This document shows positions 2,254-39,087 of a stretch of DNA of 64,000 bases, piece after piece (the first letter of the stretch is position 1; the number at the start of each line of letters is the position of its first letter). Both the position numbers and the translations under genes were made by a program. The DNA comes from a phage, in the sequence record PZ445524.1, one strand, 5' to 3'. The notes under the pieces were generated by a model that saw nothing but the letters and a program-made list of their open reading frames with translations, was not told where the DNA came from and made no database searches.

Positions 2254-4950
2254 TCAGCCAAACAGGAAGTCTAACGAAGCTTTTTCTTCATAGTCCATGC
2301 CAGCCGATTCACACATACCCGCAAGCGGTTTAACAAACGATTTTTGGAACAAAGTTGAGTGGTCAATCCAAGATAGTACATCAGAACGAATTTCTTTTGG
2401 AAGTTCTGTACCCGATGGCCAAGCAATGCACTTGTCACCAAATGGATTTCCTTCACGTAATGGAAGAACCATTACCTTATTTCCATCCAAAATTGGAGCT
2501 ACACCCAGACCACTAACAGCTCGACGATAAGTTAGCACACCGCGAATATGGAACGGGCATTTAAATCCTGGCCAACCTTTATCATCATATTTCGCTATAT
2601 CGTTCGCAGTTTTTACTTCAGCAATAACTTTATAGTCAAGTTGACGATATTCTTTCTCGAAGTTCTTGTAGTATTCTTGGACAGACTCTTCACCTTCCTG
2701 AAGAATACGACGAATACTTTCTTCGAGAGCTTCTTGCACTGCTTTTGGTGTTGAACTCTGCTGAGTTTCCATACCCATGATTTTTAGATGCGGTTCAGCA
2801 AATCGTTTATCTTCCATATCATAAACGTTCAGAGCATAACGCTTTTTCGCTTTCCAAAATCCACCAACACCCTTTGAACCAAGTGGAGGGCAAGAAATAG
2901 CTTCACGGTCCATATGCATCAGATGCTCGCGGTTATTCATATAATCACATAACTCACGATATGCAACATCAATCATAGGTTCCATCTTTTTCTTACCGAA
3001 CTGATTCATAAATTCAACCAAATCGTTCTGCTCTTTGAATCGGTCAAGACCTACTTTTTCAATAACTTTATCTACACAAACATATACAGAATCAGTATCA
3101 CCTGCTGCAATGAAATCTTCGCCATTAGTTCCGCATACTTTATTCAGATATTCATTAATTTTACGAGCAATCCACTGAATACCGACTTGACCAAAAATTG
3201 TGATAGCAGTAGCATTTCGCAAATCATAGTAACGGAAATGAATATTACCAAGAGCACCATAAAGACTGTTAATGAGAATTTTACGGTTTAGCTGATTTGT
3301 ATTAGCAAGTGTAGCCGCTTTTTCACATTCTTCAATCAGACTATTGAGAACAGATTCGGTGTAATTCGATAGTTCATTTAAGAAATCATCACTGAACTTA
3401 ACATATCGTTCAACTTCTGGTTTAGTTGAACAAGACCCTGCGCCTTTCATAATAATCTTTTTAATAGCTTCGGCATTCATTTCTTCAGCGAACATTTTCT
3501 TTTTCCAATCTTTACGCTGGAAAAATACTTTAGCGATTTCCTTTGGAATGATACCTTCTTGATGCTTATCATACATCCATCCATTCGGAGAACAAGAATA
3601 TTCATCACTCGGTTTAGGAGCTGTTCCTGCGATATATTCATGAATTGGATGAACTTTAAACTGACCACGAATAGTCTCAGGACTAATGTTAACCTGACGA
3701 ATAATGCTCGGATACAGAGACGTCAAGTCAAAACTCATAATATATCGACGAGCAATTGGTTTAGGTTCAAATACAAATGCACCCGGAAAACTTTGTTTAA
3801 CGTGCGAACCTTGCTGAGGAATAACCTTATGTTCACCTTTCAATGAGTTAAAAATAATAGCATCCCAAGTTTTAATAGGACTCATTACGCCAGAAAAAGG
3901 CATTTTAGCGTAATAAGACATACTTAAAACTAGATCGATAAACCCGCGAATTTTATCGATTGCTTGAACTGATTCTACGTCAATGATGTTATAACTAATG
4001 TATCGTTGATGATTAGTCTCACGAAGTTTATTAATAGGACCGTCGTATGGTAATTTACCTTTTTTGGTTTCATGCTGAGCAACTGATTCCAAAGAGAATG
4101 ACGGCAAATTAGTAAAAGCGAATTTCTTGTACAAATCTAAATAATCAAGAATAGATACGCCATCAATAGAATAAATTTCTTTGCTACCGTACATATTTTG
4201 AATTAGTTTAGATTTTACCCGACCGATTGGAGAGAAGCGTTTCATACTGCGTTCACCCAGAATCATTTTAACGCGATTCATGATATACGGAACGTCAAAT
4301 CCCTCAATATTCCAACCAGTAAAAATAGCAGGTCGTTTCTGTTCCCAGAGATTGATATATTCCATGAGCATATCACGCTCATTATCGAATGGCATATAAA
4401 TTACTCGGTCAAGAATTTCTTGAGGAACTTCATCACCACCTTCACAGTCAAGCTTAGCAGCTAACTTTGCATCCCATTTTGATACTGAACCATACATTGA
4501 ATTCAAAAGGTCGAAAACATAAAAACGGTCATCAATTGAATCGTAATGAGTGATAGCATCAATTTCATATTCAGCTTTCATTGGGTCAGGAAATTTATCA
4601 CCAGTAACCTCAATGTCACAGTTAGCTACACGAACAAATTTTCGGTCATAAACAATTTCTGAACCATACGTATCACTGATATAAGCGAGTTTAAAATCGT
4701 TCATACCGAGAGCTTCGAGACCGATGTCTTCCATTCGCTTCATCCAATCTCGAGCATCTTTCATTGATGGAAATTTTTGAGGAGCGCAATTTTTACCATA
4801 GATGTCTTTGTACTTTGACTCTTCCTTACAATGCCTAAACATAGTCGGAAGATATTCTACTTCACGAGTACGTTCCTTTCCGTTTTCATCAATATAACGT
4901 TCAACAATGTTATTTCCGACTGTTTCAATAGAGATATAAAATTCTTTCAT
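2254..4950 (-). CDS. 43: DNA polymerase (gp43), family B
   Basis: 898-aa ORF, same length as T4 gp43; DTDS polymerase motif; exonuclease motifs; ATG at 4948-4950. Confidence 0.97.
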   Translation of the reverse strand: MKEFYISIETVGNNIVERYIDENGKERTREVEYLPTMFRHCKEESKYKDIYGKNCAPQKFPSMKDARDWMKRMEDIGLEALGMNDFKLAYISDTYGSEIVYDRKFVRVANCDIEVTGDKFPDPMKAEYEIDAITHYDSIDDRFYVFDLLNSMYGSVSKWDAKLAAKLDCEGGDEVPQEILDRVIYMPFDNERDMLMEYINLWEQKRPAIFTGWNIEGFDVPYIMNRVKMILGERSMKRFSPIGRVKSKLIQNMYGSKEIYSIDGVSILDYLDLYKKFAFTNLPSFSLESVAQHETKKGKLPYDGPINKLRETNHQRYISYNIIDVESVQAIDKIRGFIDLVLSMSYYAKMPFSGVMSPIKTWDAIIFNSLKGEHKVIPQQGSHVKQSFPGAFVFEPKPIARRYIMSFDLTSLYPSIIRQVNISPETIRGQFKVHPIHEYIAGTAPKPSDEYSCSPNGWMYDKHQEGIIPKEIAKVFFQRKDWKKKMFAEEMNAEAIKKIIMKGAGSCSTKPEVERYVKFSDDFLNELSNYTESVLNSLIEECEKAATLANTNQLNRKILINSLYGALGNIHFRYYDLRNATAITIFGQVGIQWIARKINEYLNKVCGTNGEDFIAAGDTDSVYVCVDKVIEKVGLDRFKEQNDLVEFMNQFGKKKMEPMIDVAYRELCDYMNNREHLMHMDREAISCPPLGSKGVGGFWKAKKRYALNVYDMEDKRFAEPHLKIMGMETQQSSTPKAVQEALEESIRRILQEGEESVQEYYKNFEKEYRQLDYKVIAEVKTANDIAKYDDKGWPGFKCPFHIRGVLTYRRAVSGLGVAPILDGNKVMVLPLREGNPFGDKCIAWPSGTELPKEIRSDVLSWIDHSTLFQKSFVKPLAGMCESAGMDYEEKASLDFLFG

Positions 4951-36143: not shown

Positions 36144-36505
36144 TACAAACTCTCGGTGAAGGTACGAGCGATAACGTCGCGCTGCTGTTCCGGAGTCAGA
36201 GAGTTAAAGCGAACTGCATAACCGGATACACGGATGGTCAGCTGCGGATATTTTTCCGGATGCTTAACTGCATCTTCCAGAGTTTCACGACGCAGAACGT
36301 TAACGTTCAGGTGCTGACCACCTTCAATTTTAACTGTAGGCTGTGACTCAATTTCAATTTCACGGGCATGCAAACCATAGAAAATTTCTGGGTCTACAAA
36401 AGAGTCCTCTTTAAAGGTTTTAGAGACAATAATTCGTGCTTGAATACCATCTTCAAAATAAATAGTACCTTTATGTGTGCCTTCAAGAATTTGATATGCT
36501 TTCAT
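36143..36505 (-). CDS. grcA: Autonomous glycyl-radical cofactor (GrcA/YfiD-like; T4 Y06I homolog)
   Basis: 120 aa; the C-terminal ~59 residues ([60 protein letters not shown]) match E. coli GrcA as I remember it; the 3' half is visibly more GC-rich than its surroundings. Confidence 0.88.
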
Positions 36506-36512
36506 ATAAACC

Positions 36513-36839
36513 TCAATTAGAAAATAAATTTATCCAAGATTGTTCTTTAATTAAAAATGGCTCAGAATCATATGCCATTAAACTTTGCGTAATTAGTCCT
36601 TTAAAAGGCCCATCAATAAATTCCATGGTAAAATATGGAATTTTATTCATTAGCCGTGCATTAGGAGCAGTACACAAAACTCTGCATCCTTTGAATACGC
36701 CTTTTTGCAATTTGTATTGCTTAGGATAAAATTCGCTTAAAATGTTATTTTTTGCCAAAATTTCAAAATGATTCACCAATTTATTTTTAATAGTTTTTGG
36801 CGAAAAATAAAGATATTCGAAAAGCTGAGTGTCTGTCAT
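36513..36839 (-). CDS. Hypothetical protein
   Basis: Start moved to ATG 36837-36839 (MTDTQLFEY...), overlapping the upstream stop. Confidence 0.4.
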
Positions 36840-37378
36840 CATTGCATTCCGATTACGAAAAACTGTGGACGAGTAATACCACCAATACAACATTTAATAT
36901 TACAGCAGCAGTGTACAGTGTCAATATGGACACTATAAATTTTATCCATATCAGGAGATTTAACAGGCTCATCAATTATATACAAAATTCGCGAAAGCTT
37001 TAAACCTCTGAACTTGCTTCCTTTATTACCGATAAAACTGCGCACAGAATCAGTAAATAAACGAAAACGTATATCATCATTAGAATAACGCGAAAATTCC
37101 TTTTTGATGCTATTTGCAGAAATTTTAGCGTAAGCTGAAGTATTAGAAAGAACAATAACTGTTCCGCCATCATACAACCAATTAGCGGCAAAATTAGTTA
37201 CTGCAGTTGATTTACCGGATTGACGTCCACCATCTAGTCGAAGTGTGCAATACTGCTTAAGTAAGTCTTCAAATGGTGGGATATAATCGTTTTTACAAAT
37301 TTCTTCTACTCTAGCATCAGAATGGTGTGTAAAAGCATTCATCAGGGATAGATAAGGACCAGTTAAAAATGTTCTCAT
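36839..37378 (-). CDS. P-loop NTPase-like protein
   Basis: Walker A GGRQSGKST and Walker B ILYIIDE; start ambiguous (ATGs at 37426, 37408, 37378; only the last has a weak SD). Confidence 0.45.
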   Translation of the reverse strand: MRTFLTGPYLSLMNAFTHHSDARVEEICKNDYIPPFEDLLKQYCTLRLDGGRQSGKSTAVTNFAANWLYDGGTVIVLSNTSAYAKISANSIKKEFSRYSNDDIRFRLFTDSVRSFIGNKGSKFRGLKLSRILYIIDEPVKSPDMDKIYSVHIDTVHCCCNIKCCIGGITRPQFFVIGMQ

Positions 37379-37555
37379 TTTATTCTCTCTAAATTTGGGC
37401 CATTCCATGGCGCATGAATTGTCCATTTCTGTATTTACCCATTACCGCACTTGGGCTTGACCTTATTACAGGTTGGCGGGAATCCCTCACAAAATCATGA
37501 GGTCCAGGTTGTTCCCATGTTATTTAAATGTAAATAGGTCTGAGTATTCGCTTTA

Positions 37556-38134
37556 TTAGGAATTACGGGCTGCATTAGCAACGGCATACGCGTACTGAAT
37601 ATTAGCGTCTTTAAACTTACCTTTAGAGGTATCTATTTCTGCCTTAAAGCCGCCTTTAGTCATAACATCGGCAAATTCTTTACGGAAAGCCATTGCATCA
37701 AGACCTTTCCATGATGATTTATGCTTAGCAAATTCAAGACCTGCGAAGTTAACAGCCTTAGCTAATTTATTATCAATAACCCATTTACCGGCTTTAGGCA
37801 CAAACTTCGGGCCTTTCTGTTTAGAGAACAGTTTTAAATTCCAGCGGCGAAGGTCTGCATCAGCTTTAACAAATTCTGAGTCTAAGTTACTAGCAACAAC
37901 ATCTTCAATATGAGCAAATTTAAGTCCGTCAACTTCAATATTTAAATCGGTACGCCAGCGAAGTCCTTCCCATGCGAAGGCTTTAAAGTCGGAAGCCTTT
38001 GTAGCTAAGTACCGTTCAATAGGAGCTGTTTTAGGGTCAAAGCCGTTTCCCGATCGGTAGGTCCACTCATCTTTGTTAATGCCTTTGGCCTTTACTACAG
38101 AAGCTTCGGCAATAAATTCTTGATATGTTTTCAT
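37556..38134 (-). CDS. ipIII: Internal protein III
   Basis: 192 aa beginning with the capsid-targeting leader MKTYQEFIAEA. Confidence 0.8.
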   Translation of the reverse strand: MKTYQEFIAEASVVKAKGINKDEWTYRSGNGFDPKTAPIERYLATKASDFKAFAWEGLRWRTDLNIEVDGLKFAHIEDVVASNLDSEFVKADADLRRWNLKLFSKQKGPKFVPKAGKWVIDNKLAKAVNFAGLEFAKHKSSWKGLDAMAFRKEFADVMTKGGFKAEIDTSKGKFKDANIQYAYAVANAARNS

Positions 38135-38150
38135 GCGTTTCCTTTAATTT

Positions 38151-38468
38151 TTATTCTTTAGGGAAGTTTTTAGAATATGCATCATAAAGCTTATTTCCAA
38201 TACGGCGGAAAACTCTAGCCGCAAAACGATTTTCTGGGTTTTTAATCATGATTTGCATCATATAAGTACCCGCGTCAGAAAGAGCTTCTTCATAGTACCC
38301 GTTAATTTCTTTAAGAGTCCTACGTTTACCACCAGGACCATCAACAGTGATTTTCCATTTACCTGTAGAAGTGCGACTTGGCGGCTCAACTTGTTCAATC
38401 CAAATATAACCGCCTTCTACACGTTGTCCTGCAGCAGATTCTGCAATAAATTCTTGATATGTTTTCAT
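38151..38468 (-). CDS. ipII: Internal protein II
   Basis: 105 aa beginning MKTYQEFIAES. Confidence 0.75.
   Translation of the reverse strand: MKTYQEFIAESAAGQRVEGGYIWIEQVEPPSRTSTGKWKITVDGPGGKRRTLKEINGYYEEALSDAGTYMMQIMIKNPENRFAARVFRRIGNKLYDAYSKNFPKE

Positions 38469-38556: not shown

Positions 38557-39087
<531 letters not shown>

Follow-up and report, generated by a model that had tools for sequence, protein, structure and literature searches.

Internal-protein genes of T4-type phages are found in loci that have reportedly been described as hyperplastic. The order and content of the internal-protein genes and of denV, which encodes a pyrimidine-dimer glycosylase, differ there between close relatives, and the leader common to the internal-protein genes (MKTYQEFIAE) recurs as a DNA repeat. 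Promoter early stem-loop (PeSL) cassettes are likewise said to occur in T4-type phages. Here, we describe the e-to-vs.8 locus in a 64,000-nt stretch of phage DNA (PZ445524.1; this whole stretch is called the window), and in particular the 177-bp spacer at 37379-37555 between ipIII and the vs.8 homologue, with the genes on the minus strand. At the window locus, one fixed boundary of the variable region would be a structured RNA element instead of an internal-protein leader or a promoter stem-loop. The phage is a close relative of T4 (97% identity across 92% of a 24 kb query) for which the phage collection contains no identical record, and the window makes 64 kb out of a genome of about 168 kb visible. 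Both denV and ipII are missing at their T4 position. We consider it very probable that two things hold together, namely that the phage carries a denV-less version of the cassette and that the spacer contains a conserved structured RNA.

Several phage RNAs provide a background for such an element. ROOL and GOLLD are large, phage-associated orphan RNAs that accompany tRNA clusters; the element is far smaller than either, and in T-even phages it lies outside the tRNA cluster. HDV-like (hepatitis delta virus-like) 'theta' ribozymes reportedly adjoin phage tRNAs. Similar to the element, the small stable RNAs rnaC and rnaD of T4 are phage non-coding RNAs tied to tRNA gene clusters, yet no sequence match to rnaC/rnaD, paralogue of them or second copy of the element was found in the window. 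The element is new relative to Rfam and the searched literature, while the loss of denV is in itself an already known variation.

Predicted fold of the spacer element

The 126 nt at 37391-37516 are present in T4 at 96-100% identity, directly after an intact denV, with the T4 element beginning at the nucleotide that follows the denV stop codon. They are near-identical in T4, KIT06 and VEc74 despite a different upstream gene in each, i.e., denV, ipIII and a 158-aa open reading frame (ORF), respectively. The adjacent stretch of about 26 bp (37517-37542) was not found in T4 and recurs in other T-even phages whatever the upstream gene.

On the gene-sense (minus) strand, the element is predicted to form an RNA of about 90-120 nt. 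Its first helix, P1, would enclose an internal loop and the hairpin P1a, directly followed by a helix Pc with an invariant bulged G. Pc would close a three-way junction composed of P2 with a GUAAUA-type hexaloop, a 2-bp mini-helix and the invariant single strands CRA and GGUAA. A few nucleotides past Pc, the RNA would pair back to the internal loop of the P1 domain, giving a pseudoknot. The corresponding parts in the window are as follows.

37379-37398, minus strand: short vs.8 leader containing a Shine-Dalgarno-like GAGAG (37385-37389), read from the sequence
37399-37411, minus strand: tail hairpin GCCAUGGAAUGGC, specific to Tevenvirinae, A-N-GGA in the loop; GCC/GGC invariant in 21 type-B sequences
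37421-37426, minus strand: A-U-GGA, the other GGA motif
37429-37431, minus strand: predicted pseudoknot 3' strand CAG, pairing with CUG at 37505-37507; covarying equivalents elsewhere
37437-37441, minus strand: Pc 3' strand UGGGU, invariant bulged G at 37440 (47-sequence alignment)
37442-37459, minus strand: conserved junction CAAGCCCAAGUGCGGUAA with the 2-bp mini-helix (37456/37447, 37455/37448); near-invariant columns in alignment A7
37460-37473, minus strand: P2 hairpin ACCU-GUAAUA-AGGU with hexaloop; stem invariant in 47 sequences
37474-37477, minus strand: Pc 5' strand GCCA
37478-37516, minus strand: 5' domain, with compensatory changes within and between lineages
37512-37516 with 37478-37482, minus strand: P1
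37498-37502 with 37485-37489, minus strand: P1a hairpin
37517-37555, minus strand: junction to ipIII, 37543-37555 being T4-like flank 3' of ipIII

The presence of a conserved RNA element is well supported, since Pc, the pseudoknot and P1/P1a, as predicted from the alignments, each show compensatory change. In Pc, the 3-5 nt preceding ACCU are paired with those that follow GGUAA, leaving the invariant G bulged. An ungapped and unfitted alignment of 47 distinct sequences has all three pairs formed in every sequence (CG34/GC11/AU2; CG34/UA6/GC4/AU2/GU1; AU28/UA10/UG6/CG3), with a covariation of 0.377 versus 0.100 in shuffles (0 of 500 reach it). When the partners are slid by 1-3 columns, pairing amounts to at most 49% and covariation to at most 0.083. 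For the pseudoknot and P1, a plain, unfitted MAFFT alignment of 21 type-B sequences was used. The pseudoknot pairs (CG13/AU7/GC1, GC13/CG8 and CG21) include no unpaired case, the fifth pair of P1 varies as GC14/CG6/AU1, and the joint covariation is 0.131 versus 0.038 in shuffles (again 0 of 500). At the same relative positions, the window has CUG/CAG and other lineages have (G)CCAG(C)/(G)CUGG(U), (U)GAGG/CCUC(A) or CGG[G/A/U]/[U/U/G]CCG, with CCG/CGG, CAC/GUG, CGC/GCG, CCAG/CUGG and GAGG/CCUC as covarying equivalents. The P1/P1a helices differ between lineages, and within lineages they undergo double substitutions such as GGGAA/UUCCC to GGGAG/CUCCC (locus L023), CUCA/UGAG to CUUA/UAAG (L042) and AAAGG/CCUUU to AAAGC/GCUUU or AAAGA/UCUUU, as well as a paired deletion in L015. 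The G.U wobbles sit on the gene-sense strand, which argues that the fold belongs to the transcript.

The P2 stem ACCU/AGGU is invariant in the 47 sequences, and a scan in which this stem was left free found no covarying P2 variants, its sole match being an unrelated gene. The loop varies as R-U-R-R-N-A, keeping R at position 1 and A at position 6 as for a sheared G.A closure. The GUAAUA loop of the window is reported as the hexaloop of 23S rRNA helix 44 in the L11/GTPase-associated centre as well; the stem and the surrounding junction of the element are unrelated to helix 44. The inner pair of the mini-helix is C-G in 44 sequences and U-A in three (L094, L096, L099). In the T2 core, the P2 stem, which is otherwise invariant, has lost a C-G pair through a G-to-T change (AAUAAUGUC).

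A core covariance model (R1) of Pc, P2 and the mini-helix has its sole match in the 64 kb at 37434-37479 (minus strand; 66.3 bits, E = 2e-20), the window sequence being part of its seed. The T2 element, which was not in the seed, scores 57.5 bits. Family members score 56-69 bits, chance loci that share the search pattern at most 26.5 bits. A plain MAFFT alignment, in which types A and B are misaligned, for that reason gave no covariation with RNAalifold. A local helix P3 (GCCC/GGGU) in the core, initially favoured by eye and by single-sequence folds, was rejected for its lack of covariation and its pairing of 69%; its GGG pairs with the nucleotides before P2 instead, forming Pc.

In the tail, the pair of A-N-GGA motifs (37399-37426; columns 113-141 of alignment A6) is spaced by 18 nt with the second in the GCC/GGC hairpin loop, a layout resembling that of CsrA sites, and several relatives have a third GGA in the Shine-Dalgarno region. 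The tail of L015 and L025 contains a 33-nt insertion (GGCAAGGAGCCCAAUUCGAUUCUAGGAAGGAAA) between the pseudoknot 3' strand and the first GGA motif, indicating that the tail linker tolerates a change in length.

Distribution and possible roles of the element

A 136-nt query matched the element in 1006 phage records. The near-invariant core, about 37 nt long, reads ACCUGUAAUAAGGUCGAGCC-NNNN-GYGCGGUAA-N-G. In Tevenvirinae (Tequatrovirus, Dhakavirus, Jiaodavirus, Karamvirus and others) the element lies just upstream of vs.8, or of an internal-protein gene in some Jiaodavirus-like phages. The core is also present in rV5-like Vequintavirinae, phAPEC8-like coliphages, Pseudomonas phage PsgM04F, the N4-like Klebsiella phages KpCHEMY26 and Pylas, a jumbo contig of 359 kb and several unclassified contigs. 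In phages other than Tevenvirinae, its usual place is within or beside a tRNA cluster, on the tRNA strand. The window, KIT06 and T2 each have a single copy. A host origin was rejected, as there were no matches in 5,426 E. coli genomes. At E values up to 10, Rfam 15 gave no match to the element for the window and 13 loci carrying six variants, no tRNA or tmRNA (transfer-messenger RNA) match was obtained for it in the window or the other loci tested, and the core sequence was not found in the literature searched.

Some versions of the element have additional flanking features. An extra closing helix (e.g., GUUGUGA/UCACAAC) wraps the element in phAPEC8-like, N4-like and jumbo versions (L056, L079, L081, L082, L087, L090, L091, L053, L094), which are flanked by GAAAGCAAA at the 5' side and GGUUAGUAG at the 3' side, followed by a conserved ACACACAACAGGUAAGAGCA. 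In Vequintavirinae, a repeat motif CCC(C)UUAGAGGGCUUGA(U/A)AGUGC flanks the element, about 60 nt upstream in the rV5-like L004, L005 and L057 and on both sides in L036, L040, L051 and L069-L071; this UUAGAGGGCUUGA motif is possibly a phage-specific promoter or processing signal. KpCHEMY26 (L090, MN163281.1) has a tmRNA-like region at 2950-3140 on the minus strand, outside the element and some 400 nt downstream of it. Along with a T-arm-like hairpin UUAGGUUCAACUCCUAA, this region includes a tag frame ANDDVVLMAA (GCA AAC GAU GAU GUU GUU CUG AUG GCU GCU UAA). Its score against Rfam tmRNA_permuted is 33.7 bits, which is below the gathering score, and it is not called by ARAGORN; L087 has a weaker equivalent. 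The element itself may bear some likeness to E. coli tmRNA (AGGUCAAACCCAAAAG), RNase P (GUGCGGUAA), the anticodon loop and D-arm of tRNA-Tyr, twister (CCCAAGCCCGG) and HDV (CGGUAAUGGC).

The element would be transcribed with the leftward early transcript and act as an RNA. We tentatively prefer a mechanism in which a stable structured RNA binds a conserved component of the host translation or RNA-processing apparatus, and hold it to be possible rather than probable. The choice is based on the high constraint in phages with hosts from Escherichia to Pseudomonas and on the tRNA and tmRNA-like company of the element. The conservation of the core in unrelated phages of enterobacteria and of Pseudomonas, mostly among tRNA genes, suggests an interaction with something that these hosts share. 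In T-even phages, the element might in addition delimit vs.8 on its upstream side and form its leader.

A cis-acting 5' leader that controls translation of vs.8, either as a riboswitch or as a protein operator (e.g., of the CsrA type at the two A-N-GGA motifs), would fit the constant location of the Tevenvirinae element 20-50 nt upstream of vs.8 or the internal-protein gene, as well as the two GGA motifs of the tail. In addition, a plasmid study took the region upstream of vs.8 as a promoter (PMC13243611). Yet, what follows the element varies between vs.8, an internal-protein gene, a promoter and tRNA genes, so that it has no constant position upstream of a coherent gene set, which disfavours a riboswitch. 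In Vequintavirinae and PsgM04F a promoter separates it from the next gene, which is a better fit to a 3' or stand-alone RNA than to a 5' leader; in other phages it sits between tRNA genes without an ORF to control, and the GGA-bearing tail is unconserved outside Tevenvirinae. We therefore regard control of vs.8 in cis as unlikely. Still less probable is a self-cleaving ribozyme that processes polycistronic transcripts. The placement of the element in tRNA clusters and its predicted nested double-pseudoknot topology resemble those of HDV-like and theta ribozymes: from 5' to 3', the P1 5' strand, pseudoknot 5' strand, P1a hairpin, P1 3' strand, extended hairpin and pseudoknot 3' strand follow the HDV order P1-P2-P3-P1'-P4-P2'. 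Such a topology by itself does not define the family, however, and a search of Rfam with E values up to 10 matched neither the HDV family nor any other ribozyme. With 4 nt, the P1a loop of Vequintavirinae and type C is too short to form P1.1, the J4/2-like stretch of the window (AAAUA) has no C, and the core of about 30 invariant nucleotides is much larger than in small ribozymes. The absence of P1.1, a long L3 and the conserved catalytic C together indicates that the element is not a member of the HDV family. A role at the DNA level, as a PeSL-like recombination anchor at the edge of the variable cassette or as a promoter, would fit the observation that homology to T4, KIT06, VEc74 and T2 breaks off in every case at the element or immediately 5' of it. 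However, compensatory changes that include G.U pairs on one strand point to selection on RNA pairing, no sigma-70-like, PeSL-like or other promoter-like site and no terminator-like site was found on either strand in 37379-37600, and phages whose transcription systems are unrelated and which do not have the cassette locus retain the core. As the main role it is thus improbable; given the breakpoints at its 5' edge, anchoring of recombination may be an additional role or a by-product.

Two further explanations deny the spacer an RNA of its own. The earlier note had suggested that it may be a scar from the deletion of denV or an insert of foreign, G+C-rich DNA, in favour of which are the absence of denV and ipII exactly at this position and a G+C content above the window mean. 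The T4 alignment already refutes this, because the same element follows an intact denV in T4; it occurs in the 1006 phage records, and blastn (word size 7) revealed no leftover denV similarity. The raised G+C content reflects a conserved structured element rather than foreign DNA, and we give the scar or insert next to no weight. Only slightly more credible, and still very improbable, is a protein-coding spacer, either as an N-terminal extension of Vs.8 to 219 aa or as a separate 33-aa peptide (MRDSRQPVIRSSPSAV...). In its favour, T4 RefSeq annotates the stretch as vs.8 codons 1-40, an ATG or GTG occurs 17 nt ahead of the core in types A and B, and several core substitutions are synonymous in the T4 frame. 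On the other hand, this frame lacks a start codon ahead of the core in Vequintavirinae, Jiaodavirus and types C and D, in PsgM04F the core is immediately preceded by a stop codon, and the tail block GCCA-N-GGAA-Y-GGCCC is read in differing frames among phages. At least 19 consecutive nucleotides are invariant across phage families, as are 20 of the 46 columns of the core alignment, third codon positions included. Invariant third positions, missing starts and frame switching indicate that the constraint is on the nucleotide sequence and not on a protein.

Returning to the joint reading of a denV-less cassette with a conserved RNA in its spacer, the following points weigh against it. In the lineage of the window, the pseudoknot has just three base pairs (CUG/CAG), which are invariant. 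The between-lineage alignment of P1/P1a was hand-fitted to the structure, so that the 92.9% of paired cells in the hand-padded alignment of all lineages, versus 72.6% in shuffles, leans towards the fold. The sequences are related, and the independent compensatory events are fewer than the cell counts suggest. Folding energies resemble those of shuffled sequences (z about 0), both for the entire spacer, on either strand, and for the eleven 5' domains (66 nt each) that were folded. Transcription of the element and its action as an RNA are predictions from sequence, its binding partner is a guess, and a sigma-70-like promoter follows the element in Vequintavirinae and PsgM04F. Finally, about 100 kb of the phage genome lies beyond the window, and loss of denV from the whole genome, which is probable, is an extrapolation.

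We see about an even chance that the element represents an undescribed class of functional phage RNA, a pseudoknotted three-way junction that would either be a ribozyme or engage a conserved host factor of translation or RNA processing as its ligand or decoy. The candidate class has about 30 invariant nt and extends over at least five phage groups (Tevenvirinae, Vequintavirinae, phAPEC8-like, N4-like and jumbo phages). It would reveal a strongly constrained RNA fold in the best-studied phage, one that its annotation as the beginning of vs.8 would have kept from notice in T4 for some 40 years, and it raises the question for T4 of which partner this RNA binds or cleaves.

The vs.8 start and the denV-less cassette

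In T4 RefSeq, vs.8 encodes 219 aa, and the 40 extra N-terminal codons take in most of the element (NC_000866, L001 3380-3525; about 64,793-64,938 of the record). The extended frame is continuous in T4 owing to a net 8-bp insertion, apparently a 9-bp tandem repeat CTTATAGAG, which among the sequences compared is seen in T4 only; a TAG closes the upstream frame in the window, KIT06 and VEc74. Already in the 1986 GenBank record, the vs.8 ORF was given five alternative starts (219, 203, 190, 179 and 167 aa). The PHROG 1488 profile (177 positions) matches residues 3-179 of the 179-aa form end to end and does not cover the 40-residue extension, and no start other than M(R/K)xFLT is conserved throughout the lineages. 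Based on the profile fit, the shared start and the T4-only insertion, we place the vs.8 start of the window at ATG 37378, in agreement with what the earlier note had assumed, although the gene extends to 37426 if an in-frame upstream ATG is taken. The T4 extension is most likely an annotation artefact and the family-wide protein one of about 179 aa. This would correct the start of vs.8 in the T4 reference annotation, for a protein recently proposed as a non-terminase activator of the Avs2 defence sensor. The T2 record (L072, AP018813.1, 6754-7400) has vs.8 matches in three reading frames, from either a frameshifted pseudogene or sequencing errors.

The genes around the spacer are listed below; T4 RefSeq has the order e, ipIII, ipII, denV, vs.8 and vs.7, as the earlier note had stated in placing denV between the vs genes and ipII/ipIII. 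On the minus strand of the window, the order is e, the 105-aa gene, ipIII, the 177-bp spacer, the P-loop gene (vs.8 homologue), vs.7 and vs.6.

38557-39051, minus strand: gene e, lysozyme
38151-38468, minus strand: 105-aa internal-protein-like gene with leader MKTYQEFIAE (PHROG 3966)
37556-38134, minus strand: ipIII, internal virion protein (99% aa identity to T4 IpIII; PHROG 5341)
36839-37378, minus strand: vs.8 homologue of 179 aa, beginning MRTFLTG at ATG 37378 (97% identical to T4 Vs.8)

Between the aligned blocks that surround the spacer, 882 bp of T4 (denV and ipII) are replaced by 26 bp in the window: 36500-37516 is 95.8% identical to T4, and 37543-38147 is 97.2% identical to T4 ipIII and its flank. 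With the T4 segment as query (blastn, word size 7), no denV remnant was found in the window, the only matches being to the internal-protein leader repeat and to 24 nt within the conserved element. Nor does the 64 kb encode a DenV homologue (tblastn with T4 DenV, best E = 0.91, compared to 1e-94 for the T4 locus as positive control), which bears out the earlier observation that no translation in the window resembles DenV. The claim that the UV-repair function has been lost thus stands for the locus and the window, and for the phage as a whole it is plausible, since the complete genomes of KIT06 (167,059 bp, best E 3.9) and T2 (163,826 bp, best E 4.6) are negative for DenV as well.

The phage carries a denV-less and ipII-less version of the variable e-to-vs.8 cassette, consisting of e, the 105-aa internal protein and ipIII, in a locus that is reshuffled among T-even phages. 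This arrangement is identical in KIT06, and the contiguous junction of ipIII to the element occurs in about 50 phage records. In related loci, denV lies directly upstream of the element, lies beyond ipIII or is missing. T2 and VEc74, like KIT06, have no DenV homologue at the locus; they have the 158-aa protein and no ipIII, in contrast to the 105-aa internal protein and ipIII of the window and KIT06. In T2 (AP018813.1), the order is e, the 158-aa protein, the element and vs.8. Among records named Escherichia, 615 have the element and 479 a DenV homologue, the latter including non-T4-like jumbo phages, which indicates that a substantial share of T-even-type coliphages is without denV. The denV-less version is therefore ordinary, a common cassette polymorphism within the long-known variation among T-even phages, and on its own the denV result is routine, being another instance of the e-to-vs.8 locus as a swap region. 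The UV sensitivity predicted for a phage with this cassette is roughly that of T2 or of a denV mutant of T4. Work of the 1950s and 1960s reportedly found T2 to be about twice as UV-sensitive as T4, owing to the missing v (denV) function.

Neighbouring genes and base composition

The spacer had been described as GC-rich and free of long ORFs between the P-loop gene and ipIII, which holds: over its 177 bp, G+C is 40.7%, versus 34.9% for the whole window, and reaches 46.8% at 37391-37516. The two small ORFs listed within 37379-37555 encode 33 aa (37389-37490) and 30 aa (37495-37587). The vs.8 homologue is a P-loop protein similar to the terminase ATPase domain, with a weaker match to the terminase large subunit (bioRxiv 10.64898/2026.04.30.721860). 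The 105-aa internal-protein-like gene separates e from ipIII, which in T4 have no more than an 87-bp spacer between them; the region that it matches is labelled ipIV or Ip4 in related records. tRNA-Tyr and tRNA-Asn, which T4 and the window are without, are present in the tRNA clusters of KIT06 (99,990-100,152) and T2 (L072, 12452-12617). The tRNAs in the window are the eight known ones, identified by ARAGORN as Arg, Met/Ile, Thr, Ser, Pro, Gly, Leu and Gln.

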